Source: a virus (lineage: Duplodnaviria > Heunggongvirae > Uroviricota > Caudoviricetes). From it: DNA of 64,000 nucleotides. This document shows positions 12,826 through 39,500 of this stretch, piece after piece (positions within the stretch are counted from its first letter, which is position 1; every line of letters begins with the position of its first letter). Location of the stretch: the IMG/VR virus record IMGVR_UViG_3300035498_000944; one strand, 5' to 3'. Under the pieces are notes generated by a model. It saw only the letters and a list, made by a program, of their open reading frames with translations, ran no database searches and was not told the origin of the DNA. The translations under genes and the position numbers were made by a program.

Positions 12826-12843
12826 CTTTCTTGTTGATATACT

Positions 12844-15477: not shown

Positions 15478-15501
15478 TTTGCGTTTTAACCCTTTCGTAA
15501 T

Positions 15502-17130: not shown

Positions 17131-17157
17131 TCACCAAGTACCTGAGATATAATTTTC

Positions 17158-18456: not shown

Positions 18457-18508
18457 TATAAAACAACACCTTTCTCTGAGTGTTAACTTTTCTCTATAAT
18501 TTATCTTA

Positions 18509-19381
18509 TTAATAAATATCTTTTAAGTAACACTCATGTATAAGATCTCCATTTGAATACTTAGCGATAACCATATGATCATCACAGCCATCCAGGAGAT
18601 AATTTACAGGAGTGTAATCATTAAAGTTGATATCTATATTGAGTCTTTCTAAACATATACAGTTATAAAACATCTGACACATGTTTACTACGTTTAAAGT
18701 TTTAAAATTCTGTATATCTAATGATATTAATTCAGAACAATCAGCAAACATACTAGAAATGTAATTAACACTGCATGTGTTAAAGTTACTCAAATTTAAC
18801 CGAGATAACTTCTTACAATTAGCGAACATAGAAGACATATCTTTTACGTTACTTGTATCAAAATTATGGATATCTATATGTTCTAGACTCTCACAATTCT
18901 CAAACATACTATGCATACCTATCACATTATGAGTTTTAAAATTACTTAGATATAAGGATTTTAAACAATCACAATCAGAAAACATTCTAGACATGTCAGT
19001 CACATTTGAAGTATCAAAACTGCTAAGATTTAGAGAATCAATTGCAGTGTATTGGAACATACTAAACATGTCAGTTACATTTGATGTATTAATATCACTT
19101 AGATTTATGGACTCCAAGGATAGACAATAGTAGAACATCTGGGACATGTTATTAACATTTGATGTATTAATACAACTCAGATCTATTGAAGTTAAGTTTT
19201 CACAACAAGCAAATAATTTAGAACAGTCATCAGGAAGATATACTTGATAACTTCCAATGTATGATGGTATTACAATATCTCCATATACAAATCTATCGTT
19301 TACAGATGTTATTTGTATCCATCTATCTCCATATATGTAATTAAAGATTTTATCAAATTCATCAAAAGTCAGTTTATACAT
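18509..19381 (-). CDS. BspA/DUF285-like LRR repeat protein, paralog 9 (290 aa)
   Basis: N-terminal module plus repeats. Confidence 0.75.
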   Translation of the reverse strand: MYKLTFDEFDKIFNYIYGDRWIQITSVNDRFVYGDIVIPSYIGSYQVYLPDDCSKLFACCENLTSIDLSCINTSNVNNMSQMFYYCLSLESINLSDINTSNVTDMFSMFQYTAIDSLNLSSFDTSNVTDMSRMFSDCDCLKSLYLSNFKTHNVIGMHSMFENCESLEHIDIHNFDTSNVKDMSSMFANCKKLSRLNLSNFNTCSVNYISSMFADCSELISLDIQNFKTLNVVNMCQMFYNCICLERLNIDINFNDYTPVNYLLDGCDDHMVIAKYSNGDLIHECYLKDIY

Positions 19382-19401
19382 CTTCCTAACAACTCCTTCA
19401 T

Positions 19402-19518
19402 TTATTCTTCACAATCCAAGTGAACCATGTATCCCATCTTCGTAAGCCTATATCTATCAGAGTCATATATATGCTGTCCACATATATGACAATAACATAT
19501 AAACTTCTGTTTAGGCAT
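19402..19518 (-). CDS. small zinc-ribbon-like protein of 38 aa (MPKQKFICYCHICGQHIYDSDRYRLTKMGYMVHLDCEE). Not in the supplied ORF track.
   Basis: ORF in the 210-nt gap between LRR paralogs 9 and 10. The C.C..CG...Y...........H..C pattern is paralogous to the ORF at 23437..23574. A weak RBS (AAAGGAG) lies further upstream. Confidence 0.35.
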   Translation of the reverse strand: MPKQKFICYCHICGQHIYDSDRYRLTKMGYMVHLDCEE

Positions 19519-19591
19519 ATAACCATATAGTATCTTCATTTTGTCTCATGTTTTCTCCTTTACTCATTTTAATGACTCTACTAAGCTAATA

Positions 19592-20458
19592 CTATAGCTC
19601 CGCAAACATATACCGCTCTATATAGTGCATAATTGTGTTTGTAAGGTTAAAACAACCAGCAAACATTTTAAACGTATCAGTAATATTGGAAATATCGAAA
19701 TTGCGAGGATCTAAGTATCTAAGATTATGACATCCATAAAACATATATGACATGTCAGTGACTCTGGAAGTGTTGAAATTACTAACACCTAAATATTCTA
19801 TGTTTTCACAACCCGCAAACATGCTGGCCATACACGCAACATTGTGAGTATTGAAATTGCTGAGATCCAAAGATTCTAAACTCTCACAATAGCTAAACAT
19901 GGAAGACATGCTCATAACATTGGAAGTGTCGAAGTTACTAACATCCAAATACCTTAACTTCTTACAATTGTTGAACATAGCACCCATATCTGTAACATTT
20001 GATGTGTCAAAATTGCTAACGTCAATACTTATCAAACTTGAACAGGTATCAAACATTCCTGTCATATCAATGACATTAGAAGTATCGAAACTTCTGATGT
20101 CCAGGGATTCTAAACAAAGACAGCGGCCAAACATATAACGCATATCTGTTACATTTGTAGTATTGAAGTTATTAAGATTCAAGGATTTAAGATTATCACA
20201 TCCATAAAACATATAGAACATGTTAGTAATATTTGATGTGCCTATAACATTACTTAAATCTAGAGATTCCAAGCTTCTACACTCATAGAATAATTTTTCA
20301 CAGTTATCAGGAAGATATACCTGATAACCCTCTACATAAGATGGTACTATCAAACTGCCTGGCATACTCTTATCCTTTAATTCAGTAATTTGTATCCAAT
20401 CATCACCATATGTGTATTCAAATATCTTATTAAATTCATCAAAAGACATTTTAAACAT
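19592..20458 (-). CDS. BspA/DUF285-like LRR repeat protein, paralog 10 (288 aa)
   Basis: N-terminal module plus repeats. Confidence 0.75.
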   Translation of the reverse strand: MFKMSFDEFNKIFEYTYGDDWIQITELKDKSMPGSLIVPSYVEGYQVYLPDNCEKLFYECRSLESLDLSNVIGTSNITNMFYMFYGCDNLKSLNLNNFNTTNVTDMRYMFGRCLCLESLDIRSFDTSNVIDMTGMFDTCSSLISIDVSNFDTSNVTDMGAMFNNCKKLRYLDVSNFDTSNVMSMSSMFSYCESLESLDLSNFNTHNVACMASMFAGCENIEYLGVSNFNTSRVTDMSYMFYGCHNLRYLDPRNFDISNITDTFKMFAGCFNLTNTIMHYIERYMFAEL

Positions 20459-20478
20459 TTAAAACAACTCCTTTTCAA

Positions 20479-21885
20479 TTACCAAATACCTGAGACACAA
20501 GTTTCCCAATTAAAGTAATCTATAGCTGGATAGCTTCGAACAAGTTCTCCATCATCATATACATGTATAGTTAAATTCTGGAAATTATCTATAATCCTCT
20601 CATTAGAAAATTGTGTTCCACGTAATTTTTGATCACATTTTAATCTATCTTCAAGTTCTTCATTTATATACAAATTGTTTAATGAACTACAGTTATACAA
20701 CATATTACACATTAAATTTATATTTGAAATATCGAAGTTGCTTATGTTTAAACTGTCAAGACTCTCACATCCAAAAAACATATCTGTCATATTAGTGACT
20801 TTAGAAGTATCAAAACTATTCAAATCCAAGTATTTCAATTTACAGCAATTACAAAACATTCCTGCCATATCTGTAACATTTTCCGTATTGAAATTGCTTA
20901 TATCTAAAGAGTTTAGATTACTACATCCGGAGAACATAGCAACTGCATATATTAAATTAGATGTGTTAAAATTATTTATGTTTAAACATGCTAAACTCTT
21001 ACATTTAGCAAACATAGCAATTGCATACACTAAACTAGACGTATCGAAGTTACTTAAGTCTAGGCTTTGCAAATTACTGCAATCCTCAAACATTCTAGAC
21101 ATATCTGTTACACTAGAGGTATTGAAATTACTTAAATCTAAATATGTTAAACTACTACAACCTTCGAACATACTTGACATGCTTGTAATATTTGAAGTGT
21201 TGAAGTTACTTAAGTCTAAATAGACTAAACTACTACAACCGTCAAACATTTCAGACATATTTGTAACATTAGTGGTATCAAAATCATTAATGTCTATAGC
21301 TGATAATCTCTCACAATGATAAAACATGCTAGTCATCTCTATAACATTAGAGGTATTGAAATTACTAATGTTTAAAGATGACAAGCTTGCACAATTATAA
21401 AACATATAAGATGTATCTGTAACCCTAGAAGTATTGAAATCGGAAAGGTCTAGATTAGATAACTTGTTACATTCCTTAAACATACCTGCCATATCTGTAA
21501 CATTTGATGTGTCAAAACTACTGAGATCCAAAAATTCTAGACAAGGACACTCACTAAACATGTATGCCACAGCTGTTACATTAGTAGTATTAAAACTGCC
21601 TAAGTTTATAGAGATTAGTCTATAACATTCATAAAACATAGCGGTTGTATCAATTACATTAGATGTATCTATGATATCACTTAAATCTAGGGATTCCAAT
21701 CTGTCACACCAAGCAAATAATCTAGAACAGTCATCTGGAAGATATACTTGATAGCCCGCAACATAAGTTGGTACTATCAAACTACCTGACATATCTGTAT
21801 CCTTTACTTTAGTTATCTGAATCCAATCATCACCATATGTATATTCAAATATTTTACCAAAATCATCGAAAGACATTTCACTCAT
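20479..21885 (-). CDS. BspA/DUF285-like LRR repeat protein, paralog 11 (468 aa) with C-terminal cassette
   Basis: N-terminal module, repeats, and the shared C-terminal module. The 3' 100 nt are identical to paralog 7. Confidence 0.75.
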   Translation of the reverse strand: MSEMSFDDFGKIFEYTYGDDWIQITKVKDTDMSGSLIVPTYVAGYQVYLPDDCSRLFAWCDRLESLDLSDIIDTSNVIDTTAMFYECYRLISINLGSFNTTNVTAVAYMFSECPCLEFLDLSSFDTSNVTDMAGMFKECNKLSNLDLSDFNTSRVTDTSYMFYNCASLSSLNISNFNTSNVIEMTSMFYHCERLSAIDINDFDTTNVTNMSEMFDGCSSLVYLDLSNFNTSNITSMSSMFEGCSSLTYLDLSNFNTSSVTDMSRMFEDCSNLQSLDLSNFDTSSLVYAIAMFAKCKSLACLNINNFNTSNLIYAVAMFSGCSNLNSLDISNFNTENVTDMAGMFCNCCKLKYLDLNSFDTSKVTNMTDMFFGCESLDSLNISNFDISNINLMCNMLYNCSSLNNLYINEELEDRLKCDQKLRGTQFSNERIIDNFQNLTIHVYDDGELVRSYPAIDYFNWETCVSGIW

Positions 21886-21905
21886 TCTAAAACAACTCCT
21901 TTCTT

Positions 21906-22550
21906 TTAGGGTAGATTCATATCTTGTTCAAATTGAGTTTGTAATGTATCATTACCATATAAGTCTTTTAAACTACTACAGTCTCTAAACATATTCTCCA
22001 TAGTATCAACCTTAGAAGTGTCAAAACTACTTAAATCTAGTTTTCTTAGATGTTTACATTTAACAAACATATGCGACATTTCATTGACGCTAGAAGTATT
22101 AAAACTACTTAGGTTCAAAGATTTTAAACTCATGCAATCCGCAAACATACCAGACATATCAGTAACATTATGAGTATCAAAATTGCTGACATCTAAGGAT
22201 GTTAAACTATCACACCACCTAAACATACCAGACATATCAGTAACATTAGAAGTATTGAGATTGCTAACATCTAAGAATGTTAAATTATGACAACCTCCAA
22301 ACATCTCACACATGTTAGTAACATTTGAAGTGTCTATAACATCACTTAAATATAGAGATTTCAATCCTTCACAGTTAAAAAACAGATCAGAACAATCGTC
22401 AGGTAAATAAACTTGATAGCCCTCAACATGAGAAGGTACCATAAGTGTACCTTGCATATCTTTATTTTTCACCTTAGTGATCTGAACCCAATCATCACCA
22501 TATGTATAGTCAAATATTCTATTGAATATTTCAAAAGACATTTCATTCAT
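21906..22550 (-). CDS. BspA/DUF285-like LRR repeat protein, paralog 12 (214 aa)
   Basis: N-terminal module plus about 6 repeats. Confidence 0.75.
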   Translation of the reverse strand: MNEMSFEIFNRIFDYTYGDDWVQITKVKNKDMQGTLMVPSHVEGYQVYLPDDCSDLFFNCEGLKSLYLSDVIDTSNVTNMCEMFGGCHNLTFLDVSNLNTSNVTDMSGMFRWCDSLTSLDVSNFDTHNVTDMSGMFADCMSLKSLNLSSFNTSSVNEMSHMFVKCKHLRKLDLSSFDTSKVDTMENMFRDCSSLKDLYGNDTLQTQFEQDMNLP

Positions 22551-22580
22551 TCTGTATCAACTCCATTATGTATATAATTA

Positions 22581-23411
22581 TTATTTCCAATAAACTTCTG
22601 CAGGACAGCCGTCGAACGTAGACATGGCTGATATTCTTTTATGTCTAACAAAGTTGCTAAAATTAATTTGTTTCAGACTCTCACAATAGGCAAACATTTC
22701 AGATATGTCTGTAACACTTGATGAGTCGAAACTACTTAAATTCAAATAGGTTAACTTTTCACAATAACCGAACATTCCAATCATGTTTGTGACATTAGAG
22801 GTGTTAAAGTAATTTACATATAAACACTCTAACTCGTGACAACGATAAAACATGTAATACATATTTTGTACATTTGATGTTATGAAATTATCAAGATTTA
22901 AACTCTTTAATCTTTTACACCACATGAACATGTAACTCATATCTGTAACATTAGAAGTATCGAAGTTGGATAAATCAAGATATGTAAGATTACTACAACC
23001 GTAAAACATCTCTGACATATCAACAACATTAGATGTATTTAAGCTGACTAAATCTAAATCTGCTAGAGAGGTACAATGAGAAAACATAGCATGCATATTA
23101 CTAACATTAGAAGTATCGAAGTTGCTAATGTTTAATACCTCTAAACTACAACAGTTAAAGAACATTCTAGATGCGTTAGTGACATTAGATGTATCTACAA
23201 TATTATGTAAATCGATTTCCTTTAACTGTGTACCTTCAGCAAATAGATCTGTGCAATCATCTGGTAAATAGACCTGATAATCATCTACATATGAAGGAAC
23301 AACTAGTCTAGTTAGTTTACCATCATTCTTAAATTCAGTTATCTGAATCCAATTATCTGCACATGTGTATTCAAATAACCTTCCAAATTCATCGAAAGTC
23401 ATATTGTTCAT
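22581..23411 (-). CDS. BspA/DUF285-like LRR repeat protein, paralog 13 (276 aa)
   Basis: N-terminal module plus repeats. Confidence 0.75.
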   Translation of the reverse strand: MNNMTFDEFGRLFEYTCADNWIQITEFKNDGKLTRLVVPSYVDDYQVYLPDDCTDLFAEGTQLKEIDLHNIVDTSNVTNASRMFFNCCSLEVLNISNFDTSNVSNMHAMFSHCTSLADLDLVSLNTSNVVDMSEMFYGCSNLTYLDLSNFDTSNVTDMSYMFMWCKRLKSLNLDNFITSNVQNMYYMFYRCHELECLYVNYFNTSNVTNMIGMFGYCEKLTYLNLSSFDSSSVTDISEMFAYCESLKQINFSNFVRHKRISAMSTFDGCPAEVYWK

Positions 23412-23602: not shown

Positions 23603-24592
23603 CTAACAGAGTTTATATCCACAATTAGGACAGAAGTTAGCACCTGTAGTTTTACTTCCACAATTAGGACAGAAATTTGGTATCTGTCCAGACTGCTGGA
23701 AATTATTTACCTGCTGATTTGACTGACCTTGCTGAGGCATAGACATAGGATTACTATTCATCATATGTTGAGCCATTTGCATACCCATCATTAACCCAGC
23801 CATATCTCTAGCTGTACCACTAGCAACATTTCCGCCTGACGGCTTTGTTAAGCTATCGAGCATCTGCATCTGTGAATATCTCTGCATATCTCCTACCATA
23901 GAGTAGGAAGCATTCTTTTGTACCATTGCTTGAACTTCATCTGGATATGTAACACTGCCAATATTGAACTGTCTTATAGAAATACCAGTATCAACAATGT
24001 TCATATCAAGTTCCTTCATAATACCTTGTCCAATCTCAGATGAATTTGCCTGAATGTTGAACATGTCTTTACCCTCTTTTACAATCCACTTACTAAGAAG
24101 TTGATCAAGAACAGATGTTATACGAATCTTAATATCATCAACACAATAAGAGTCTTTTACACCTGCAATTCTTTCAACTGTTGCAGTATAGTTTGTGAGT
24201 TTAAATACTAGGGTGCCATTTGCTCTTATAGGCATACCACCTGGCATATTTGGATTAGGTATATTAATTGGTTGTTTAGTTCCCCATCTTATGGTGAACT
24301 CTCGTGTATTTATAAAAAGAACCTCTGCTCTCATACCTGTATTAAATCCAAACTTAAAACCTTTAAGCTTAGATAAAAATGGTATGATTTGAGATTCAAT
24401 ATCAAACTCTCCTGTTTCTGTGAAGATGCCTTCTATTTTACCCTGATACATAAATATAGCATTCTGACCAGGTCTTATTATAAGTCTACTTCCTTTTTTG
24501 ATTTCATTGTTATGCCACTTGTAGAATATTTGGTCATCCCTATATTCTTCCCACTCTACAACGTTAGCTAACTGACTTGTAAAAAATCCCAT
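23603..24592 (-). CDS. SPFH/Band-7 domain protein with C-terminal zinc ribbon (COG4260 / B. subtilis YdjI-like)
   Basis: SPFH-like core, Met/Gln-rich linker, and a C-terminal CPNCGSKTTGANFCPNCG zinc ribbon. Last gene of the PspA operon, as in pspA-ydjGHI. Confidence 0.65.
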   Translation of the reverse strand: MGFFTSQLANVVEWEEYRDDQIFYKWHNNEIKKGSRLIIRPGQNAIFMYQGKIEGIFTETGEFDIESQIIPFLSKLKGFKFGFNTGMRAEVLFINTREFTIRWGTKQPINIPNPNMPGGMPIRANGTLVFKLTNYTATVERIAGVKDSYCVDDIKIRITSVLDQLLSKWIVKEGKDMFNIQANSSEIGQGIMKELDMNIVDTGISIRQFNIGSVTYPDEVQAMVQKNASYSMVGDMQRYSQMQMLDSLTKPSGGNVASGTARDMAGLMMGMQMAQHMMNSNPMSMPQQGQSNQQVNNFQQSGQIPNFCPNCGSKTTGANFCPNCGYKLC

Positions 24593-24612
24593 AAGGAATC
24601 TCCTTTCTTATT

Positions 24613-25335
24613 TTAAAAATGTCCGCCACCATGGCTTCCACCTCCACCTCCACCATATCCACCTGAACGATTACTACTCTTTCTAGTCTTCCTTATATCA
24701 GTCCAAGTGTAATCCATACGGAGTAGTGTAGCATTGCTTTTAGAGGTATCAAGAAAAGTCTCACCTGTGGCTCTTTTAATACCTGTAGACTCTTTGTATT
24801 GAAACCACAATATTATCATAGAACTTATTAGAGCTACACAAAAGAAGAATAAAGCTATAGGAACTATCCATATGGAAAATCCTGTAAGCTTAGGATGTTT
24901 CACACATTTATTCTCTAGCTCTAGAAATTTCATACATCCCTTGTAGTATGTACCTTTTGTGAACTTACTACGAATGCATTGATATATTAAGGTATCAATA
25001 TCAGTTGTTATTTTATCTTTAAGCAAACCATAAGCAGACACATCAATATATCTATCGTTCATGTTAACATATAACATAACACAATCAGGACTGTTAGAGT
25101 GTTGACTGTAGAAACTAGTTGCTTCAGTCTCATGCTTAGTAGTGTTGGTATTATTTGTATATATTATGACATCTATGTTTTGTTTACTCATTACTGACTT
25201 ATCATAGAAAGTTATAAGTTGAGACTCCTCCTCATTTGTCAATAATGTAGCATCATCAGCTATAAGAATGGTAGCATGAGTTGTTGTTGCAAATGTAACT
25301 ATAAAAAACAATGTTATAAAAATCTTTTTTATCAT
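24613..25335 (-). CDS. TPM-domain (YgcG/YdjH-like) membrane protein with Gly-rich tail
   Basis: Signal/TM segment, a TPM-like core (ILIADDATLLTNEEESQL...DRYIDVSAYGL), a TM segment and a C-terminal GGYGGGGGGSHGGGHF tail. Confidence 0.55.
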   Translation of the reverse strand: MIKKIFITLFFIVTFATTTHATILIADDATLLTNEEESQLITFYDKSVMSKQNIDVIIYTNNTNTTKHETEATSFYSQHSNSPDCVMLYVNMNDRYIDVSAYGLLKDKITTDIDTLIYQCIRSKFTKGTYYKGCMKFLELENKCVKHPKLTGFSIWIVPIALFFFCVALISSMIILWFQYKESTGIKRATGETFLDTSKSNATLLRMDYTWTDIRKTRKSSNRSGGYGGGGGGSHGGGHF

Positions 25336-26447
25336 GACTTTTTAGCACCTCCCGGATCCTTAGATTTTGAACGGAAGGGTTTATAATATAAATAGTATAT
25401 AACAACTGCGATTATAGAGAATACTGCCAAACATAAAGCAGACTTCCAATCAATTGCAAATCCAGCACACAAGTAGTAGATGTATCCTACTGGTATATAA
25501 CAAAGTGTTGCTATTGCTACTGTTCTAAAAACCTTTGTTGGACTTATAGGAGTCTCACCTGCGATACAGCCAGATTGACCATTCATATAAAACTTATAAG
25601 TCTTACCATCTACGTTACAACTGAATATGTATAATGGGTAATAGATTAAGTTTATTTGATTGTTTCGTTTTATAACAGCATCTGCTTTTATGTTAGCAAC
25701 TTTATAACCCTGTATACGTTGTGAGAAATAATCTACGACGAACCTTTCATTTATAGTATCAGCAACATGCTTTACTTGGCGATTATCATAATCATACCGC
25801 TTAGATCTTGTACCAGATAAAACACATGGATCAAAGTTAGTAATGTTATCATTATTAAATGGAGTTATAGCTTCCATATAATCATCATCTAATTCTTCCA
25901 TACCATCAGCAGGAATATAATTAGTTATAACATTACCAATAACTTCAGCATCAAAATGTTTTATTTCAGTTATTATATAATCACCTGAAGAATGTTTTGT
26001 AGTAGTCGTAACATCAAATAACATACTTCCACTATTTTCATAATCAAAACACCAAAATGGCATAAGATATTTATTAGTCTTTGTTATATGTATAGATTTT
26101 CTTAATTCATTTGATACAAGTGGTCTAGTTTTTAGCCAGGCTTTAAACTTCTTTTCTGCTTCTTTATCATCAAATTCAAAGGGAGCAATAAAATCAGGAG
26201 TTTGCATTGAATCTAGAACATCTGTATGTATAACCGATCTTTCACATGCTTCACAAAATCCAGATAAGATATTACCATGTGAATCAATAGGAGAACCACA
26301 ACTTATACAAAGCTGTGATTCTCCAGTATCTTTAGGCTCAATATCCAACAAACTGAAGTGTGAATTACATGAAGTACAGATCATGTCATCTGTTTGTTTC
26401 ACATAAATTAATTCTCCACCACAACTGGGACATTGATAGCTTAGCAT
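25332..26447 (-). CDS. double zinc-ribbon membrane protein (YdjG-like)
   Basis: Two zinc ribbons (CPSCGG...CTSCNSHF and CISCGSP...CEACERS) and two C-terminal TM helices. Start and stop are coupled to the flanking genes. Confidence 0.5.
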   Translation of the reverse strand: MLSYQCPSCGGELIYVKQTDDMICTSCNSHFSLLDIEPKDTGESQLCISCGSPIDSHGNILSGFCEACERSVIHTDVLDSMQTPDFIAPFEFDDKEAEKKFKAWLKTRPLVSNELRKSIHITKTNKYLMPFWCFDYENSGSMLFDVTTTTKHSSGDYIITEIKHFDAEVIGNVITNYIPADGMEELDDDYMEAITPFNNDNITNFDPCVLSGTRSKRYDYDNRQVKHVADTINERFVVDYFSQRIQGYKVANIKADAVIKRNNQINLIYYPLYIFSCNVDGKTYKFYMNGQSGCIAGETPISPTKVFRTVAIATLCYIPVGYIYYLCAGFAIDWKSALCLAVFSIIAVVIYYLYYKPFRSKSKDPGGAKKS

Positions 26448-26449
26448 AG

Positions 26450-27130
26450 TTATTTACCTGCTTTCATAGCTGCAAGCTCTGCTTCTATATCATCAGCATC
26501 ACTTGAGGCTTCACTGTCATACTTAGCTATCAATTCTGCAGTATCATCAATACGAGATGTGCTAAGTTCAGCCATAGCATTAGCTCTATCTATCATATTG
26601 TTTGCCCGTTCTTCTATTCTATCAAAGGCACCTATAGATGTTGATGCACCTGAAAGAGAAGAACCTATATTATTAATTTTCTCCTGTGTCTTAGCAACAG
26701 CTATCTTAGCCTTTATTTCCTGTCTACGGCTATTTAAATTGGATATATCTTTTACAAGCTTATCATGCATTTGACGCATCTGTTCTGCTTTTGCTTTAGC
26801 ACTTTCATGTACAGCCTTAGCAGATTCAATTCTTTTGTTAGTTTCATTCTTAAGTGCAAGAAATCTTTTTGCATCGTCATCATTGCCAGCATCAACAGCT
26901 TTCTGAGCATAATCTTTATATTTATTTGCTTCAGCTTCAAGAGCTTCAACATCTCTTCTTGTTCTCTGCTCTTCTGCCATTATAGCTGCTGTTTCAGCCT
27001 TCACATTACCAAGATCTTTCTCAAGATTTCTCATTACCTGATCAATCATTTTAGAAGGATCTTCTGCCTTGTCAAGCAAAGCATTTATATTACTTTCCAT
27101 AATGTCTTTAAAACGTGTTAAAATACTCAT
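26450..27130 (-). CDS. pspA: PspA/IM30 family protein (phage-shock protein A / LiaH-like)
   Basis: 226-aa coiled coil. MSILTRFKDIMESNINALLDKAEDPSKMIDQVMRNLEKDL is a typical PspA/Vipp1 N-terminus. Confidence 0.75.
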   Translation of the reverse strand: MSILTRFKDIMESNINALLDKAEDPSKMIDQVMRNLEKDLGNVKAETAAIMAEEQRTRRDVEALEAEANKYKDYAQKAVDAGNDDDAKRFLALKNETNKRIESAKAVHESAKAKAEQMRQMHDKLVKDISNLNSRRQEIKAKIAVAKTQEKINNIGSSLSGASTSIGAFDRIEERANNMIDRANAMAELSTSRIDDTAELIAKYDSEASSDADDIEAELAAMKAGK

Positions 27131-27149: not shown

Positions 27150-27626
27150 TTATAGAATATGTCTTATCTGCATCAAAGCCTTACCTAAAAGATTCTGACC
27201 GCTCCATCTTTCAGGATAAAATCTGTTAGGGCTTGACATAGAAAGTCCTATACCCCATATTTTGTCATGTACAGCACATTCAGCTAGTATAGCATTTCCG
27301 GTGTTTTTCAACATTTGACAAAGTTCTGGGTTTTGTTTAAACTTAAAATAATTACCTCTTAACACGACCTGAAATCTTTTATCAGACCATGTCTTCTCAT
27401 CATAGTGAACAACTTTTCTACCAAGTGCTTTTATAGCTTTTACATTGTTGCTTTCTAAAATTCTATTGGCTATGAATTGATCATTAAAGGTTATAGCTTT
27501 CTGATACATCATGTACTGCTCAACAGAATTAAAAGTAATTCCATCTGCAGTAAAATTGGATTTATACCAATTACTTAAAAAGCCATTTGGTTCATCTGGA
27601 TTATGAAAACAAATTACATTACTCAT
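27150..27626 (-). CDS. NADAR-domain (YbiA-like) ADP-ribose-processing N-glycosidase
   Basis: GFLSNWY...F.SVEQYMMYQKA...W...R...V..GN..KF.QNPEL...L..TG...L.E.....D.IWGIG matches NADAR/DUF1768 conserved blocks. Confidence 0.7.
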   Translation of the reverse strand: MSNVICFHNPDEPNGFLSNWYKSNFTADGITFNSVEQYMMYQKAITFNDQFIANRILESNNVKAIKALGRKVVHYDEKTWSDKRFQVVLRGNYFKFKQNPELCQMLKNTGNAILAECAVHDKIWGIGLSMSSPNRFYPERWSGQNLLGKALMQIRHIL

Positions 27627-28482
27627 TAGAAACTATCCTTTCCTCTATAAAGTTTGATAGATAATCATATGCATTAGACAATGCTATGTCATAGGATATA
27701 TTATTATCTATATAGTTAGTTAAACGATCATACAGTATTTTCTGCAGATCATATAAATCGTTAATATATTTATCTGAAACGTCATTGGTAAAATTACAAC
27801 ACAAATCATAGACTGTATCATATAAGAATTTGTCAGGTTGATATTTGTATAGATTTGCTACAGAAGTTGGTAAAGTGCTACATATAGAATCTGTTGGGTA
27901 AAATATATCGTTAAGAATAAGGCATAATCCTTCATTACGGAACGATGTATTATCTTTAGGAACATATGTCATTGATAAAGAATGATTATTATAAGATTCA
28001 TTTATGTCATTATAAATTGCTCTACCAATATCGCTACCTTTAAAGAACATGATACATATGCAATCATTCCATGTAGCAAACAGTTCTTTATGTGCCTCTA
28101 CTTTATCATTATAAGTTCTACTTAACGCTGGTTCTTTTAGGAGTTTTATAATACTTCGTTCTGATATGGAGTTTGAATTATTTAATAAATCATACAAATC
28201 CTCAATGTACTCTCCTGAATGTTTAGGATATATAGCTATTATATTATAATCCCCTGATTCCATACAGCAACTTTCAGGTACAGAAGAATTATCAATATGA
28301 GCAGACATTAACAACATATTAACTTTGTCATTATTTACATAATAATCAGAGCCTATGTTTAAATTCTTTAACAACTTTTGAGTTACCTCTGGTTCAATAT
28401 CATCAGAAGAGCCAAAGTTTAAACCAACATATTGACCTGTGTTATCATTCCATAAAATCTCTTTTCCTTTTAATCCGAACAT
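27619..28482 (-). CDS. hypothetical protein
   Basis: ORF of 287 aa. Confidence 0.4.
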   Translation of the reverse strand: MFGLKGKEILWNDNTGQYVGLNFGSSDDIEPEVTQKLLKNLNIGSDYYVNNDKVNMLLMSAHIDNSSVPESCCMESGDYNIIAIYPKHSGEYIEDLYDLLNNSNSISERSIIKLLKEPALSRTYNDKVEAHKELFATWNDCICIMFFKGSDIGRAIYNDINESYNNHSLSMTYVPKDNTSFRNEGLCLILNDIFYPTDSICSTLPTSVANLYKYQPDKFLYDTVYDLCCNFTNDVSDKYINDLYDLQKILYDRLTNYIDNNISYDIALSNAYDYLSNFIEERIVSNE

Positions 28483-29133
28483 TTACTTATCAACTCCTGT
28501 CTCAATTTCTATTTCTGTTGTCTTATGTGAAATTCCAAATACTTTTCTGATAGCCACTATCAATATAATTAACCAGCAAATACCCATAAAAATATATTGA
28601 TCTCTAGCACGTGCTAACTCTTTATTATACACATCATCTGGAGTGTAACCAATATACAAATAATGAACCTTTTCAGAATCTGACTTATTATAATTCATAA
28701 AAGTACAAGGAGTACCTGAATAAATTGTATAAGTCTTAGTTGTGTCATCTGAAATCCATTTAAGTTTAGAAGTATAATCTCCAACTATATCTAGCACATC
28801 CCAGTTTGGTTTATATCCACTAAAACTTGCATTGGTTCCAGGAGTTACTTCTCTACCAACTTCCATGTCATTATAGCTATAATGACCCTTTGTAAAAGTA
28901 TGATACTCTACATCTATTGTATAGGCTATATTATCAGAACTTTCTGCTGTGAAATAGCCAACACTCTCATCACTTGCACTATATAGGTAACCATTAGCCT
29001 CCACATTATCACACAACGTTCTTATGTGATCTATATTAGTCTGTATCCTTAAATGTATCTTATAAGAGAATAATAACAGCCATGCAAGTGCTACTATAAT
29101 TACTGCACGTTTTGTACCTATAGAGGATTTCAC
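28483..29133 (-). CDS. membrane-anchored protein (paralog A of a duplicated pair)
   Basis: N- and C-terminal TM helices. Shares VTPGTNASFSGYKPNWD and TPCTF blocks with 29173..29805. Confidence 0.45.
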   Translation of the reverse strand: MKSSIGTKRAVIIVALAWLLLFSYKIHLRIQTNIDHIRTLCDNVEANGYLYSASDESVGYFTAESSDNIAYTIDVEYHTFTKGHYSYNDMEVGREVTPGTNASFSGYKPNWDVLDIVGDYTSKLKWISDDTTKTYTIYSGTPCTFMNYNKSDSEKVHYLYIGYTPDDVYNKELARARDQYIFMGICWLIILIVAIRKVFGISHKTTEIEIETGVDK

Positions 29134-29172
29134 TGAATAAGAACCTCCTGCTCACAGAACTTTATAGAGGAT

Positions 29173-29805
29173 TTAATCCACATTTTCTGTTTTAGATTTG
29201 TCACGTAAATTAGCAATTAATGCAAGGAAATCTATTATTGCAAATATAGATAAGACAATCTCAATAAAAAGACATCCTTTATTTATATCACTTGATATAG
29301 TATTGTGTACAGTGTCAGGATCATTGTTTATGTAGATTCTATGCAGATTATAGTCAGGAGAACTATAATAAACAAATACACAAGGAGTATCATTATTTAT
29401 AGTATAAGTAACTTCCTTAGTTCCTGCAAGTGTGTTGTTACTAACTGCAGAATCTCCATAGAAATCTAACGAATTAAAATCAGGTATAAACCCATCAAAA
29501 CTAGCATTAGTTCCTGGCATTATATCTCTGTAGGATTCTGTATAATCTATACTATTTCTGTTAAAATAGCGGTCATAATATAAAGTTATGGAGTAGGTTG
29601 TATTAGCATCACTTGTGGATTTAAAATAACCCACTCCATTCTCATTAGGATCAAAATTATCTCCATCAAGTACCACAGCATTAAATAGGTTATTCACAAT
29701 GTCTAATCTCTCATTCTTCATATTTTCCATATAGACGAGACCTCTCATCAATAATAGAAGTACAACTGCTGATATGGTACACTTAATCCACTTAGTAGAT
29801 TTCAT
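29173..29805 (-). CDS. membrane-anchored protein (paralog B)
   Basis: IMPGTNASFDGFIPDFN and TPCVF blocks, with the same topology as paralog A. Confidence 0.45.
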   Translation of the reverse strand: MKSTKWIKCTISAVVLLLLMRGLVYMENMKNERLDIVNNLFNAVVLDGDNFDPNENGVGYFKSTSDANTTYSITLYYDRYFNRNSIDYTESYRDIMPGTNASFDGFIPDFNSLDFYGDSAVSNNTLAGTKEVTYTINNDTPCVFVYYSSPDYNLHRIYINNDPDTVHNTISSDINKGCLFIEIVLSIFAIIDFLALIANLRDKSKTENVD

Positions 29806-29820
29806 TTAACTTAGTGCCTC

Positions 29821-30570
29821 CTAAATATAAAGTTCTTTTGTCATTACTTCTGAAAAAGCTATATGATTCACAGATGATTTGTTTGGTATAGTGTATACTG
29901 CAATAGGACAGTAGATATACTCTTTGAATAATCTAGCTACAGTGTAGGGGTCCTGCTTAAATATACCACAACCAAATGCACCTAGAATTGCTACATCAAT
30001 CTTCTGATCGATGATCACATTAGATATATGCTTTATTCTTGATTCAAGAGCTTTTAAATTATCTTCATAGGAAATACCCTCTTTATAGGCATAACGCCAA
30101 TTAGGGGCTGCACAGGTTAAAACATCACACTTTACAATTCCATCTTCTTGTGGAAATATTATATCTGGAGTATAAACTAATCTATCTTCATATAAAGCAT
30201 TTTGCTGCATAGCTTTATTTTCTTTATAGTACAGGGGACATCTTGATAAAACATTGTACAAAGTAGATGCATGACATAAAGATTCCTCTTGTGTTGTTCT
30301 ACCCTTTAAAAATCCACCACCTGGATGTTTAAAAGATGCAAAGTTTAGTATGGCTTTCTTTCCATTTTTGTATCTTAGCATAGCAGATACAGAATCTTTA
30401 TCATCAAGAATAGTAAACTGTCTCTCTGGTAATTTTGATTTTCTCATATATCCAGTAGGATAAATTAGGGATCTTTCTACTGAAGACTTAATTTCTTCAC
30501 TGAAGTCTTTATCCATCTGTGCAACATGTTCATAAGCTTTCTTTACAAATGATTCTCTTTTTGAATCCAA
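29821..30570 (-). CDS. bacterial-type PARG-like macrodomain protein (DUF2263/TIGR02452-like)
   Basis: ILNFASFKHPGGGFLKGRTTQEESLCHASTLY matches the LNFA..PGGG....AQEE.LCR.S.L signature of microbial poly(ADP-ribose) glycohydrolase-like macrodomains. Confidence 0.55.
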   Translation of the reverse strand: MDSKRESFVKKAYEHVAQMDKDFSEEIKSSVERSLIYPTGYMRKSKLPERQFTILDDKDSVSAMLRYKNGKKAILNFASFKHPGGGFLKGRTTQEESLCHASTLYNVLSRCPLYYKENKAMQQNALYEDRLVYTPDIIFPQEDGIVKCDVLTCAAPNWRYAYKEGISYEDNLKALESRIKHISNVIIDQKIDVAILGAFGCGIFKQDPYTVARLFKEYIYCPIAVYTIPNKSSVNHIAFSEVMTKELYI

Positions 30571-30581: not shown

Positions 30582-30851
30582 TCACTTCTTCTCATTCCAG
30601 TATTTACTTAAATCTCTGATCTTCCACGTAGCGAAATATTTATCTTCACAAATACATACATTTCTTTCAATACAACCATACCAAGCAGGATCGTACTCTG
30701 ATTGTTCGGCTATAGCATATATTTCTTTGTAAAATCGTGGATCGGAGTCTTTCTTCAACTTAAGAATCTTATCATAAGTTTCTTTAGATATTTCAACTTC
30801 TACAGGTGTAAAAGTCTGTAATTCTTCTACTGTTGGCAGTCTGTTTGACAT
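30582..30851 (-). CDS. small protein, tandem duplicate copy 1 (89 aa)
   Basis: About 60% identical to 30990..31241. Near-identical 5' leader. Confidence 0.45.
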   Translation of the reverse strand: MSNRLPTVEELQTFTPVEVEISKETYDKILKLKKDSDPRFYKEIYAIAEQSEYDPAWYGCIERNVCICEDKYFATWKIRDLSKYWNEKK

Positions 30852-30989: not shown

Positions 30990-31241
30990 TCAATCACTTA
31001 CTTCTTTAATTTTCCATGTAGCAAAATATCTGTCACCGCAGACACGTATATCCCTTTCAAAACAACCATGCCAAGCTGGCTCAAATCCTGACTGATCCGC
31101 TATAGAGTATATCTCTGAATAAAATTGTGGATCTGATTCTTCCTTTAATTTTAAAATCTTATTATAAGTCTTTTCAGGTATCTCAACTTTTATAGATACA
31201 AAATCTTGTGATTCTTCTGTTGTGTGCAATCTGTTTGACAT
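30990..31241 (-). CDS. small protein, tandem duplicate copy 2 (83 aa)
   Basis: MSNRL.T.EE.Q.F......I...TY.KILKLK..SDP.FY.EIY.IA.QS...PAW.GC.ER....C.D.YFATWKI is shared with copy 1. Confidence 0.45.
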   Translation of the reverse strand: MSNRLHTTEESQDFVSIKVEIPEKTYNKILKLKEESDPQFYSEIYSIADQSGFEPAWHGCFERDIRVCGDRYFATWKIKEVSD

Positions 31242-32689: not shown

Positions 32690-32711
32690 CTTCTCTTCTT
32701 ATTTTATATAG

Positions 32712-32792
32712 TGTACCTGATGGGATTCGAACCCACACGCCTATTAGCATTGGAACCTAAATCCAACGTGTCTACCATTCCACCACAGGTAC
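32712..32792 (-). tRNA. tRNA-Leu (anticodon UAG), type II with long variable arm
   Basis: Reverse complement reads GTACCTGTGGTGGAATGGTAGACACGTTGGATTTAGGTTCCAATGCTAATAGGCGTGTGGGTTCGAATCCCATCAGGTACA. 7-bp acceptor stem, U8, anticodon stem TTGGA/TCCAA with loop TTTAGGT, 13-nt variable arm, T-loop TTCGAAT. Confidence 0.75.
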
Positions 32793-33110: not shown

Positions 33111-33719
33111 TTATGATACTACACTTCTAGCGTAAAGTACAGTAGAGAAATCATAGTAATCACCATATGAACTTACAATGTCTTTGTCCAAGTTATAAGA
33201 ACTAAATGCCTTAGTAATTTTGCGTAATGTAAATGATCCAACCATCTTGAACTTAGAGAGAATCTCTATAGCTTCCAAGAGACGAAGAACATTAACATTA
33301 GAGTTTGTAATGGCACACTGAGTCTCTATGAGCTGCACACCATAATTTTCAATAATCAAGTGCTTCATTTGATCAGAGTATTTGTTTGTATAAACTATCA
33401 ATTCCCCTGGGACTCTGTCACATAATCCTATATCACTTATCAGTCCAGCACCGGCTTCATATCCAAATACTTCACCTGTTACATCATTTTTGATAAACAA
33501 TCTCTGTATTACACTCACTGGATCAAACTCATTTTCTTCATCTGGAATATAGTAAATATTTTTGTCTATAATTTCTGGACATTTATCGTACTTTATCATC
33601 AAACCTGAGTTCACAAGTTTGTCTGCTGCTCTTTTAGATATCTTAAGTGATTTTAAATCTTCAGCGAGAAAAGCCTTGTTGTAACCTATAGTATCAACCA
33701 ATTTCTCAAAATCTTTCAT
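33111..33719 (-). CDS. hypothetical protein
   Basis: ORF of 202 aa. Confidence 0.4.
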   Translation of the reverse strand: MKDFEKLVDTIGYNKAFLAEDLKSLKISKRAADKLVNSGLMIKYDKCPEIIDKNIYYIPDEENEFDPVSVIQRLFIKNDVTGEVFGYEAGAGLISDIGLCDRVPGELIVYTNKYSDQMKHLIIENYGVQLIETQCAITNSNVNVLRLLEAIEILSKFKMVGSFTLRKITKAFSSYNLDKDIVSSYGDYYDFSTVLYARSVVS

Positions 33720-36096: not shown

Positions 36097-36576
36097 TCAA
36101 GCATCTTGGAATTCTATAGCATTATATATCCATCTTGGTGGTAGATTATCCTCCTTATAGAAAACATAACCAGCATGATTATCTCCATAAACACAATAAT
36201 ACAAATTATCAGTGTCTTCTGGAATACTGCCGGTTATTACTCTTAGTCTATCAGAACACACTTCATTAAACAAGTCATTTATATTATCCCAAGCATCCTG
36301 ACTGTATGGATCAAATAAATATATGCCCTTGCCGAATGATCCCGAATTACTTCCAGCCTCTAAACCATTTCTTAATATGTCTTGTACGCTATCAGATTTA
36401 GTTATATGATAGAAGTCAAAAGAATACGGATAAGGCATTAGTATTAATACTGGATCTTCCAAATGAAGACTTTCAGCTAATTCATCAAATTCTTCATACG
36501 TAGCATCTACATATTCCGATAAATACATAATGACATTGTCATCTTGATATTCAAGTTTATAGTATACATCTAGCAT
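36097..36576 (-). CDS. hypothetical protein
   Basis: Acidic ORF of 159 aa. Confidence 0.4.
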   Translation of the reverse strand: MLDVYYKLEYQDDNVIMYLSEYVDATYEEFDELAESLHLEDPVLILMPYPYSFDFYHITKSDSVQDILRNGLEAGSNSGSFGKGIYLFDPYSQDAWDNINDLFNEVCSDRLRVITGSIPEDTDNLYYCVYGDNHAGYVFYKEDNLPPRWIYNAIEFQDA

Positions 36577-36590: not shown

Positions 36591-39500
36591 TTATGAAATC
36601 TTTAACTCACTTACCATAACTTTAGTTTCATCAATAGGACTTTGATAAATCTTAAATTTGAAAGTTGAGTTATCTTTATAAAGCAATGCCATTCTCGCAA
36701 TATCCGGATCCTGAGACAACTTAGTACACTTACCTGTTTCACAAAGTGCATAAGATGTGTTTTCATCTGACTGGGCACAAATCCTATTACCTATGAATGG
36801 TAAGAAGGAGTTAAATGCTTTAGCAAGCTTAGCAACAATTATAAAATGAATACCTAAACTTGCACACTTTTGAAGCATGTCTTTAAATTTATCAGTCGTA
36901 TTCCAATCTTCACCTACACCTATACCTACAAGTTTGTCCCACATCAATCCAAATACAAAGATTGGTGTATTTGTTTTACTTGGATCTTCGGTTCTAGCAT
37001 TCATTTCCTCTTCAACAAATGCTAAAAGATCATCAGCAGGATTTGGACTTATGTATTTCTGATATTCCGGTTTTACACGTTTTGTTAAGTCTAACAGATC
37101 AGCTAACTCTGGGTCTGGACATGATACAATAAATTCAATATTGTGTGACTCACAACCGTATAAAAATGTATTAGCTAGATTAAATCTATCATCTCGGTTA
37201 TTACCACAAATCATGACATGTTCACCATCAGCTTTCTGTAAGATAACATGCAATGGAATTTTATCTTCACTAAAGTAGGTACGTTCACCTACAAGTATAA
37301 GTGTATTTAGTTTCTGTACTTCAGTTCTAGCATACCAAGCAGTTGTATCTGTCAATGGATGCTTACGCTTTTCATCATAGAAAAGTGCACCATATTCAAT
37401 GTGACCTTTAACCTTTTCACCTTTAAAGTTGGTCCAAACATCTTCTTTAGTCTTTCTAGCTAATTTAGCTAAATATTCCTTAATGTAATCGTTAGGAGCA
37501 AATGGTATTACATATCTGTGATTAGAGGTTAATTTACCCTTATCACAGTTAGTGTAGATAGCACCTCTACCTCTAAGTTTTTCATATGCAGCTGGGTTAC
37601 CAAGCACATCATCTGATACATCTTTAGAACATCTAAGACAAGCTCTCAACATGAACTGATCCAAAATATCTTGTGACATTGTACCTTTCATAGACTGAGA
37701 TGTAAACCACAAATGACAACCTGCGAAACGAGCAAGCTTTGATATAGAAGTAATCTGTATCTTGATCTGATCTACTATTCTGTCCTCTACTTCGGTAAAC
37801 ATAACCTGGAACTCATCACAAAGAATTATAAGACGAGGCATTATAGACTTGCCATCAGCAATCATCCTTTGTTTCAAATCCCATTTTGTTTTCTCCTTTC
37901 CAGACATATTATTAACATCCTTAGGCTGGAAAGTTATAGTACTGTTCCAGTCGGCTATTGACTGGAACTGATATATACCCAATTCTGACTGACGCCTACG
38001 CATTTCACGAAGAGCATATTCAAATACAGAAAGAGCATATTCACCATCTGTTGTACCTGCAATGATTCTTGCATGAGGTATAATAGATGGAGGTGTTACA
38101 TTAGGATTGGATTTATCTGTATACATACCAAACTCAACGTTCTTGAAGTCAATCATTATCAATGACAATTCTTCAGGTGAGTACATATGTAAAAGATTAG
38201 CCAATACTTGGTTTATGGTAGCAGATTTACCGGCACCTGTCTCACCACACATTAGACAATGAACAGGCTTAACGCCATCTGAACCAAACCACTCTGGATT
38301 GTTATCACTTCTGTCACCTTCAAAGAATCCAAAATGTAATTCAATACCGGGTGCGGAAGAATAAGTCCATATTTTATTATCAGGTATGAATACTGTCCTA
38401 TATTCTTCCTCATACCAAATAATGTCAGGTTTACGCTTACGCATTGTTAATTCAAATTCTTTAACTGCATTTTGTACTGTATAAGTATCAGCAGTCAGAC
38501 GTTGTTCAAAAGTACTTGTTTTATATAGTGGTATTGATGTGCCATCATTTACAATGGCAACATCATCACTCTTTATAACAATAGGGAAATCTAAAAGGAC
38601 TGGAATATCTGGTGGAATCTTACCTTCTTTATCAGTGAAGTTAGACTCATCAGCATGCAGTAACCATATCCAAACACCCATATCTGTAGAGTATTTTTTG
38701 AACTCTTGGAATACCTTATTAGAAGCCAAACCAGATGATGATAATATAATAACAAGAGTATACTCAAGTGTTGTTTTATTTTCATTTGAGTTATCTTCAT
38801 TATACTTATTAAAGGATTTATTGCCTATAACCATCATATTTGATTTAGCTTTCTCATATAATTGCTCAAGCACTTTTGTATAATCTGTTGTAACAACACG
38901 GATATATTTTTGAGTATCTTTATTTAAAAATTCACTCAAATCCTTACCTAGACCTTCAGGATCAATGATAGTCACATCAAGAAAGTTTTCTCGTACGTTA
39001 GCTAACATAGAACATAAGAATAACCTTATCTGATCTAATCTATCTGATCTATCTGGTAAATCATGCCACTGGAATAATATATTCTTGTAAGGAAGAGTTA
39101 CTCTATTATATCCATATATTAACTCACCTGATCTATCTGTAATCTTTGTTGTAGTAAATGATGTGTCTAAGAAATAATTTATAGTAACTGGTATTCCTGG
39201 ACCACCTAATAGCTTAGCACGATTAAGAAGATCTTGAACTTTTTGCTTTGCTTTAACTTTATCTTTTTCTGACTTCTTTATATCAGACATAAGATCATCA
39301 AAATAAAGGTCGTTTCTAGAAGTTGAATTGTATTTAGCAACTTCCATCATACGGCTATTAAGTTCCTTAGCAACGCCTAAGAAATATTCATTATAGGCTG
39401 AGAACTTTCGCTTATATTCAGCAGTGAATCGCTCATAAAGACCATTAACCTGTGACTTGTACTTTATCATACAAGTTGCATTAGTAGCCTCATTTATGGT

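Follow-up and report, generated by a model that had tools for sequence, protein, structure and literature searches.

This locus raises the question of why a phage should encode, a short distance apart, two enzymes predicted to remove ADP-ribose: a NADAR-family glycosidase and a PARG-like macrodomain. The window, by which we mean the whole stretch of 64,000 nucleotides analyzed, is most likely part of a huge phage genome (the source contig measures 123.5 kb), the host is probably a gut or rumen Bacillota, and all the genes discussed below lie on the minus strand. According to the original prediction, the two enzymes form a kit for reversal of ADP-ribosylation. The explanation that we favor is looser, and we give it an even chance of being right: the phage would carry two independent, catalytically intact ADP-ribose erasers, which would belong to a loose anti-defence island together with an apparently orphan AbiEi-like antitoxin.

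The gene at 27150-27626 encodes a predicted stand-alone NADAR-family ADP-ribosyl N-glycosidase of 158 amino acids, with AGGAAAGG upstream of its ATG. The protein matches PF08719 over profile positions 2-162 of 163 (E 7.2e-50; 169.9 bits, cut-off 35.1), as well as TIGR02464 (E 4.4e-43; 147 bits, cut-off 73.7), the PHROG family phrog_1017 (E 4e-45) and the PADLOC model PDC-M42C (E 1.2e-71). The closest solved structure in a PDB sequence search was the Phytophthora NADAR 8BAU (E 2e-24). When the two sequences were aligned, the catalytic residues E36 and K43 were found to be retained, with the E/K pair in register and the same 7-residue spacing, and the superfamily Glu was present as E116. The residues with the corresponding roles are E43 and K50 in PnNADAR and E36 and K43 in T4 AdfN (PMC11543638, PMC11825919). 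The full-domain profile match, the Glu/Lys pair and the superfamily Glu place the protein in the NADAR superfamily, and both the predicted domain and its conserved Glu are thus borne out.

Two traits separate this protein from the DarT1-associated NADARs (DarG1). No adjacent DarT was detected with Pfam, NCBIfam or PADLOC, and two residues ahead of E116 a Leu (L114) is found in place of the catalytic Asp of the DarT1-associated NADARs, which is D171 in E. coli C7 (their conserved Lys is K115). The lack of a D171-type Asp speaks against an anti-DarT1 reading. The top phage matches are two faecal phage fragments (51-56% identity), with Lak megaphages just below (44-47%), and the closest NADAR relatives, MT837160 and MT836087, have no further cassette gene in common with the window. 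Guanine-ADPr is hydrolyzed by 8BAU (PMC11543638) and, in vitro, by every NADAR subtype tested (PMC11125620). Phage orphan NADARs (AdfN) from three independent lineages neutralize DarTG1 (PMC11825919), while the T4 NADAR by itself, outside infection, does not rescue DarT1 toxicity (PMC11125620). The gene had been described as lying directly downstream of pspA; because all genes are on the minus strand, it is in fact transcriptionally upstream of pspA.

The second enzyme, encoded at 29821-30570, is a predicted stand-alone macrodomain of the bacterial PARG type (249 amino acids), with a TTG start preceded by GAGGTG. Assignment to TIGR02452/DUF2263 and the presence of the Gly-rich loop were both confirmed. 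The protein matches TIGR02452 with E 4.4e-48 (164.1 bits, cut-off 50) and PF10021 with E 1.8e-25 (90.5 bits, cut-off 23.5), the latter being the Pfam family PARG_cat_microb and not Macro. The catalytic loop GGG-x7-QEE (G84-G85-G86, Q94-E95-E96) and the diphosphate-binding loop GAFGCGIF (G197-AFGCGI-F204) are intact, and in an alignment of 27 homologs their columns are invariant or nearly so, with the exception of G86, which varies. In the same alignment, the N-terminal 60 residues are common only to gut Bacillota and phage homologs. Among solved structures, it is related to D. radiodurans PARG 5ZDA (E 4e-23, residues 62-219 aligned) and T. curvata PARG 3SIG (E 3e-18).

The macrodomains of DarG and PARG had been treated as one class, a view that does not hold. 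The PDB sequence search returned bacterial-type PARGs only, with no solved DarG relative among them. The bacterial-type PARG family cuts ribose-ribose bonds in PAR, ADPr at the 2'-OH of RNA and 5'-phosphate ADPr, and does not cut thymidine-ADPr; bacterial PARGs also reverse the 2'-OH RNA ADP-ribosylation caused by RhsP2 and shield cells from that toxin (PMC11833690). PHROGs contains no family for this protein. An IMG/VR scan with the single sequence yielded no relatives, and a scan with the alignment yielded 241. In the phage database, it is matched best by proteins of Lak megaphages, of other huge phages and of Bacillus phage G. No paper testing a phage-encoded bacterial-type PARG was found in the literature searched.

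When we examined whether the two genes travel together, the answer was negative. Their gap in the window is 2.2 kb, in keeping with the 2 kb originally given. Of 168 PARG loci, not one has a NADAR near PARG: 88 from phages, viral contigs and Logan were inspected out to 10 kb or less, and 80 from bacteria out to 6 kb. Clustering of the 88 loci of the first group revealed no conserved partner gene beside PARG. The sole phmmer match to a NADAR near PARG, in locus L095, was rejected as spurious since it is non-collinear. In Lak megaphages, the two genes share a strand and a genome region. Such closeness as here is conserved nowhere else examined. By a rough estimate, the chance expectation of a 2.2 kb spacing on a 123 kb contig is about 5%, so that the proximity may be accidental. 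Hence, NADAR and PARG are neither a conserved pair nor a co-evolved operon.

The counter-defence role that we infer for NADAR and PARG, with its substrates and expression timing, would be as follows. Both genes lie within a co-directional block of accessory genes, and their bond chemistry would be complementary. NADAR would act as an AdfN-like orphan antitoxin, releasing ADP-ribose from nucleobases of phage DNA or RNA (at guanine N2, perhaps also on cytosine) by cleavage of the N-glycosidic bond, and would undo the action of host toxins of the DarT1 or ScARP type. PARG may cut O-glycosidic ribose-ribose bonds, such as those of PAR chains and of RhsP2-type ADP-ribose on the 2'-OH of RNA, and may act also on 5'-phosphate ends, so that RNA would be protected against ART toxins of another class. 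Much of the predicted kit is compatible with this scheme: the family assignments, the motifs, the likely phage context and the match of the NADAR to AdfN as an anti-DarT protein (PMC11825919). The DarG-class macrodomain, the conserved pairing and the module of intervening genes found no support.

Three further genes, none of them mentioned in the original prediction, bear directly on the interpretation: an orphan antitoxin and two ART-fold proteins. The gene at 33111-33719, which lies 2.5 kb upstream of PARG, encodes an AbiEi-like antitoxin of 202 amino acids (PADLOC PDLC02236, E 4.8e-19, profile positions 4-192 of 207). It is considered a probable orphan because no AbiEii toxin partner was found among the scanned neighbors, which cover part of the ORFs of the window. 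The use of orphan antitoxins in counter-defence has been described before, and the presence of this gene is in line with it.

The gene at 36097-36576 encodes a small, very acidic protein of 159 amino acids (net charge about -23) with a predicted ART fold. A PDB sequence search gave noise only, and tblastn against phages gave nothing. An AlphaFold model of a single ART-like sequence was discarded (pLDDT 45), and the prediction was repeated with 21 remote homologs. The conserved His (H57, beta1) and Tyr (Y86, beta2-3) of the H-Y-E clade are present; in the 21 homologs, the position expected for the catalytic Glu (beta5) is occupied by an invariant Gly (G136), preceded by H134. A paralog of 172 amino acids is encoded at 587-1105; it was the hit of an hmmsearch with the A3 profile among 95 window ORFs (E 2e-7), and alignment A5 shows a complete H-Y-E set (CVHYTK, HGIYVY, SQEYLI), with Q-E-Y where its relative has G136. 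A Tpt1/KptA role in RNA repair was discarded for the ART-fold protein, which is strongly acidic and has no conserved Arg tetrad.

Because the phage encodes ART-fold proteins of its own, the erasers could have an internal role instead. The H-Y-E protein (587-1105) and its H-Y-G relative (36097-36576) would modify host or phage targets, while NADAR and PARG would limit collateral modification or self-modification, or recycle the mark. Such an arrangement has a parallel in T4, whose Alt, ModA and ModB ADP-ribosylate targets, and in T4-like phages NADAR and the phage's own ARTs are expressed early and together (PMC9503650). Phages, moreover, commonly encode small ART-fold proteins that are uncharacterised. 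However, the nearer of the two genes has an invariant Gly in place of the catalytic Glu, which together with the strong negative charge makes modification of nucleic acids unlikely; the H-Y-E paralog is 26 kb away from NADAR; and no member of this ART family is found near PARG in the 168 other loci. We therefore regard an internal cycle of writing and erasing as unlikely.

A role in metabolism or RNA repair must also be weighed. Both enzymes might clear soluble derivatives of ADP-ribose, such as NAD-derived immune signals or by-products of RNA repair, and the substrates of NADAR could be reactive intermediates of riboflavin synthesis, as is the case for YbiA. TIGR02464, which the NADAR matches at twice the cut-off score (147 bits versus 73.7), bears the name 'riboflavin biosynthesis intermediates N-glycosidase'. 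RibD_C, isochorismatase/nicotinamidase-like and NAD-ligase-like proteins are encoded in the same window, and an isochorismatase-like gene directly adjoins PARG in six other loci. On the other hand, the NADAR resembles YbiA (E 1.6e-6) far less than it resembles PnNADAR (E 2e-24), and YbiA itself hydrolyzes G-ADPr in vitro (PMC11125620). No other gene of the riboflavin pathway was seen, and the ART-fold proteins lack the Arg-His-Arg-Arg tetrad of Tpt1, without any conserved Arg in A3. Housekeeping of this kind thus seems quite improbable.

The genes that separate the two enzymes had been proposed to belong to the same module, and the three predicted ORFs do exist. The one at 27619-28482 encodes an acidic, soluble protein of 287 amino acids; it abuts a membrane protein gene upstream and overlaps the start of NADAR by 8 nt. 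No match was found in Pfam, NCBIfam, PHROG or PADLOC, no relative in IMG/VR and no homolog among 5.8 billion proteins, so that it is the sole sequence of its kind. The genes at 28483-29133 (216 amino acids) and 29173-29805 (210 amino acids) encode membrane proteins that are indeed paralogous (31% identity, E 1e-23). Since the TM scan predicts two transmembrane segments in each, one N-terminal and one C-terminal (with a central domain of about 150 amino acids), they are not strictly bitopic, as had been thought. This pair likewise lacks relatives in IMG/VR and matches in Pfam, NCBIfam, PHROG and PADLOC.

The case for a single functional unit of five genes, running from PARG through the three intervening genes to NADAR, would be their tight co-directional packing (gaps of 15, 39, 0 and -8 nt) and the absence of a terminator-like site between them. 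The same packing, however, is found all along the 23.6-32 kb block and outside it, and carries for this reason no information; in a scan of positions 22.5-37 kb, counts of promoters and terminators were no higher than in shuffles, so that no operon boundaries can be drawn. Nothing ties the intervening proteins, devoid of homologs and domains, to ADP-ribose, and in no other genome examined is PARG linked to NADAR or to these genes. A five-gene unit is therefore highly improbable, and the three intervening genes, an ORFan and two membrane paralogs, would be unrelated lineage-specific cargo. Directly 3' of NADAR, the block 23603-27130 is devoted to membrane maintenance and is not related to ADP-ribose. 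Pfam matches and the TM scan identify in it PspA (26450-27130), a Zn-ribbon membrane protein (25332-26447), a TPM-domain membrane protein (24613-25335) and an SPFH plus Zn-ribbon protein (23603-24592). The SPFH and Zn-ribbon pair was found again in two other loci, L150 and L163.

Because no structural phage gene is found in the 64 kb window, assignment to a phage is indirect. The GC content of NADAR and PARG matches that of the surrounding genome, and the surroundings of the nearest PARG homologs resemble large phage genomes. The two tRNAs of the window were the only Rfam finding. A plasmid, an ICE or a segment of bacterial chromosome, in which the enzymes would provide immunity against ART toxins of competitors or act as orphan antitoxins, is scarcely tenable: the lack of virion genes, the FtsK/SpoIIIE-like protein, M23 peptidase, glucosaminidase and many DUF285/LRR surface-type proteins (also found on conjugative elements) and the frequency of PARG relatives in Lachnospiraceae genomes would suit it, but a split RNA polymerase beta' (a separate ORF encodes its C-terminal part only), the PolA, RNase H and ligase-like genes, the tRNAs, one-strand coding across 64 kb, the many ORFans, the match of the DUF285 proteins to PHROGs of large phages and the top or near-top rank of Lak megaphages among phage-collection matches of both enzymes all point to a phage.

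Two ADP-ribose erasers in a loose anti-defence island thus remain our preferred reading. Both enzyme types were already known, and as phage NADAR counter-defence (AdfN) is established, the NADAR half is merely another example. The PARG half is the more useful one; large uncultured phages often carry relatives of this enzyme. A tentative and rather doubtful extension is that bacterial-type PARGs might be an unrecognised class of phage counter-defence, found mainly in large and huge phages (the 241 IMG/VR relatives, Lak, phage G). They would guard phage or host RNA against O-linked ADP-ribosylation at the 2'-OH by host ART toxins; the island that would house the gene in this phage would also contain an orphan AbiEi, an AdfN-like NADAR and a new family of ART-fold proteins that are small and acidic. 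More speculatively, the target of a phage PARG might be Thoeris-type signals (2'cADPR or 3'cADPR), whose ribose-ribose O-glycosidic bond it would open. If phage PARGs act in this manner during infection, host defences that ADP-ribosylate RNA ribose would be implied, a class not yet described in anti-phage immunity. Through this locus a concrete PARG gene becomes available for testing, along with two newly recognised small ART-fold proteins that are candidates for its partners.

Comparison with known systems places the NADAR closest to AdfN (T4 gp30.3, Bas32, Bas60; PMC11825919): both are stand-alone phage proteins of about 150-160 amino acids with E36 and K43, unlinked to DarT. The likeness noted here is one of size and residues. 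Among its phage-database matches, this NADAR is most similar to the faecal phage fragments and Lak megaphages cited above; the host differs, being probably a Bacillota species. DarT1-associated NADARs differ in their D171-type Asp. The PARG shares its domain, GGG-x7-QEE loop and GAxGCGxF loop with DUF2263/TIGR02452 proteins from T. curvata (3SIG), D. radiodurans (DRB0099, 5ZDA) and S. coelicolor (SCO0909), but those are bacterial and this one is phage-encoded; nor does it lie beside a PARP or in an operon like the ligase/PARG/kinase-phosphatase operon of Deinococcus. DarG-like antitoxin mimics of a Vibrio phage (PMC11481870) and of a chimallivirus (DarG2-like, PMC13309987) share the concept of a phage macrodomain hydrolase directed against an ADP-ribosylating defence. 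However, they are of the DarG/TARG1 type and remove thymidine-ADPr, while the protein described here is of the PARG type and, judging from its sequence, would be expected to have O-glycosidic specificity.

Among phages, Lak megaphages possess both genes (PARG 36-39% and NADAR 44-47% identical), yet they carry them 19-21 kb apart and not 2.2 kb, with no neighbors in common around PARG, and the rest of the window is not Lak-like: when 20 kb were compared by megablast with the phage collection, nothing matched, and the FtsK-like protein has no match in Lak phages, so that this phage and Lak are not closely related. In Bacillus phage G, the PARG homolog is gp114. T4, with Alt, ModA, ModB and the gp30.3 NADAR, offers a parallel as a large phage that combines ART-fold writers with an ADPr eraser; in the phage studied here, the ART-fold proteins are small and acidic and form an uncharacterised family of their own, and a PARG is present in addition.

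The product of 27150-27626 on the minus strand (-), 158 aa, is a full-length NADAR: Pfam PF08719 is matched from position 2 to position 162 of its 163 (E 7.2e-50), and TIGR02464 (E 4.4e-43), phrog_1017 (E 4e-45) and PADLOC PDC-M42C (E 1.2e-71) are matched as well. The closest solved structure is the Phytophthora NADAR 8BAU (E 2e-24), with E. coli YbiA far below (E 1.6e-6). Mutated in earlier work on E. coli C7 NADAR and T4 AdfN (PMC11543638, PMC11825919), the Glu-Lys pair with its spacing of seven residues is retained as E36 and K43, and so is the superfamily glutamate, E116; loss of the catalytic residues had been set beforehand as a finding that would overturn the original prediction, and no such loss is seen. 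Relatives in the phage collection amount to 730 records, the top matches being faecal fragments (51-56% identity) and Lak megaphages (44-47%). All NADAR subtypes tested cleave guanine-linked ADP-ribose (ADPr) on DNA and RNA, and do not act on thymidine (PMC11543638, PMC11125620, PMC11833690); a 2026 paper adds cytidine as a target (PMC12945103). Phage orphan NADARs of three lineages neutralise DarTG1 (PMC11825919). The 27150-27626 protein is predicted to be a further phage NADAR resembling AdfN, which acts against DarT1.

The second enzyme, a bacterial-type PARG of 249 aa (29821-30570, (-); PF10021, E 1.8e-25; TIGR02452, E 4.4e-48), starts with TTG, with GAGGTG ahead, and has the D. radiodurans (E 4e-23) and T. 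curvata (E 3e-18) PARGs as solved relatives. The Gly-rich loop expected of a macrodomain is present: G84-G85-G86 is followed after seven residues by Q94-E95-E96 (GGG-x7-QEE), and a second loop reads G197-AFGCGI-F204. Except for G86, which is variable, all of these columns are invariant or nearly so in 27 homologs. The protein is an addition to DUF2263/TIGR02452 and not a DarG-type macrodomain, so the reversal of thymidine-linked ADPr that had been expected of it does not follow. Bacterial PARGs are the sole hydrolases found to reverse 2'-OH RNA ADP-ribosylation by RhsP2; they also cleave 5'-phosphate ADPr and shield cells from the RhsP2 toxin (PMC11833690). Only 20 records in the phage collection are PARG relatives: 15 belong to Lak megaphages (36-39% identity), two to uncultured huge phages, two to Bacillus phage G (gp114, the one genome having two records) and one to a faecal fragment. 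When IMG/VR was scanned with an alignment, 241 relatives were detected, most of them carried by contigs 100-340 kb long. The literature searched yielded no study on a bacterial-type PARG encoded by a phage, and such an enzyme offers a testable point.

A full-length AbiEi-like antitoxin (33111-33719, (-); PADLOC, E 4.8e-19) is encoded 2.5 kb upstream of the PARG. No AbiEii toxin was found among its scanned neighbours, and the protein appears to be an orphan antitoxin on a phage. The interpretation that we favour, giving it about an even chance, is that NADAR and PARG are two independent erasers of complementary bond specificity which, together with the orphan AbiEi, would make up a loose anti-defence island. 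NADAR would remove N-glycosidic, base-linked ADPr, and PARG would remove O-glycosidic, ribose-linked ADPr.

Two further proteins admit another explanation, namely a phage-internal writer-eraser system that makes use of both. The first is a small ART-fold protein (36097-36576, (-)) encoded 5.5 kb upstream of the PARG, with a weak PARP-catalytic match and 21 remote homologs in an exhaustive HMMER search of 1.8 billion representatives. H57, G82-x-G84-x-Y86, C128, G131, H134, G136 and Y137 are conserved in the alignment, and AlphaFold supplied with the homologs gives a pLDDT of 88. An invariant Gly is found where the catalytic Glu is expected, and the net charge is about -23. The second (587-1105, (-); family profile, E 2e-7) retains the H-Y-E pattern. 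Both are predicted to be paralogs of an uncharacterised small ART-fold family. No member of this family lies near PARG in the other 168 loci, and comparable small ART-fold proteins, also uncharacterised, are frequent in phages; we consider the writer-eraser system unlikely. The next gene upstream of the one for the acidic ART-fold protein, 36591-40502 (-), encodes 1303 aa, with an FtsK/SpoIIIE ATPase domain in the centre and a long N-terminal half of coiled-coil/TM character.

Clearance of soluble ADPr derivatives or of riboflavin intermediates is a quite doubtful alternative. The TIGR02464 match of the NADAR speaks in its favour, and so do RibD_C and nicotinamidase-like genes nearby. The RibD_C (reductase/DHFR-like) protein (2580-3254, (-)), which draws attention because NADAR/YbiA acts on riboflavin intermediates, is encoded 24 kb from the NADAR, and the isochorismatase/nicotinamidase-like gene (6097-6603, (-)) lies 23 kb from the PARG.

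Six mutually unrelated loci of our survey (L116, L130, L115, L099, L067 and L070) have a homolog of the latter gene that directly adjoins PARG in the same orientation, and a functional link between PARG and nicotinamidase may exist. The window also encodes a GNAT acetyltransferase (1976-2542, (-)) and a HipA/CtkA-like kinase (3686-4786, (-); PADLOC PDC-M03A, E 8e-12; PDB 3AKJ, E 0.002), whose homologs occur near PARG in L162, L099 and L091.

When the surroundings of PARG were searched with tblastn and phmmer (E up to 10), no NADAR was detected in 88 loci with flanks of at most 10 kb (80 from IMG/VR contigs, five from Logan or NCBI contigs, two from Lak phages and one from phage G). The same was true of 80 bacterial loci, 6 kb on each side; a lone phmmer match there was non-collinear and was discarded as spurious. 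Clustering of neighbouring ORFs in the 88 loci yielded no conserved PARG partner, the recurrent neighbours being DNA methyltransferases, metallophosphatases and small unknown proteins. The nearest NADAR relatives have no other gene of the cluster in common with the window. Hence, the spacing of 2.2 kb, for which we estimate a chance expectation of about 5% on a 123 kb contig, is specific to the phage of the window and does not argue for a co-evolved module.

The original prediction had suggested that the module may include three unknown genes lying between NADAR and PARG, one soluble and two a duplicated membrane pair. These ORFs are real: an acidic, soluble 287-aa protein (27619-28482) with no homologs among 5.8 billion proteins, and two membrane paralogs (28483-29133 and 29173-29805; 31% identity, E 1e-23), each with one N-terminal and one C-terminal TM segment and with no relatives in IMG/VR. 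ORFs in and around the region are all on the minus strand and tightly packed; the flanking genes are packed just as tightly as the five, and a promoter and terminator scan gave chance-level results only. With PARG loci that lack NADAR, unspecific packing and intervening genes devoid of homologs, the module claim was an over-reading, and a five-gene module is highly improbable. The observation is correct, its components are ordinary and its context is of modest interest.

Just upstream of the PARG, two small paralogs of 89 and 83 aa (30582-30851 and 30990-31241, (-); 61% identical) with conserved Cys residues are separated by a 56-aa ORF; neither has a family match. A membrane-maintenance block (23603-27130, (-)) encodes, besides PspA, a Zn-ribbon protein with two TM segments at its C-terminus, a membrane protein that has a TPM domain, and an SPFH/Band_7 protein that also bears a Zn-ribbon. 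The SPFH and Zn-ribbon pair is found together again in two Ruminococcus MAG loci (L150 and L163), and a flotillin-like SPFH protein is encoded at 7271-8602.

All 64 kb are coded on a single strand, with about 32% GC, and no DNA-level relatives were found in the phage collection. The exact proteins are also present on a JGI contig of 123,558 bp (sample 3300035497) and on contigs that Logan assembled from SRR11792607. Other genes include a family A DNA polymerase, RNase H, a ligase-like protein, an Hsp70-like protein, tRNA-Val(AAC) (6663-6735, (-)) and tRNA-Leu(TAG) (32711-32792, (-)), the latter lying inside the accessory block at a distance of 2 kb upstream from the PARG. About twelve DUF285/LRR (BspA-like) paralogs of 179-542 aa occupy some 15 kb (8672-23411, (-)) and match large phage PHROGs. 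Of RNA polymerase beta', a separate ORF of 252 aa (63152-63910, (-); Thermus residues 1238-1477, E 2e-10) covers the C-terminal portion alone, which implies a putative split multisubunit phage RNAP; jumbo phages typically have split multisubunit RNAP genes. The window looks like part of a huge phage, although the 64 kb contain no virion gene and the assignment is therefore an inference; the chance that it is a non-phage element seems very slight. The host is likely a member of the Bacillota, since bacterial PARG relatives (30-46% identical) come mostly from gut or rumen Lachnospiraceae, Selenomonadaceae and Erysipelotrichaceae, and the window has a SpoIIID-like gene.

That NADAR and Macro domains occur together in large DNA viruses was described previously (PMC9503650). 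In Lak phages, both genes are on the same strand, 19-21 kb apart; however, the neighbours of their PARG differ from those in the window.
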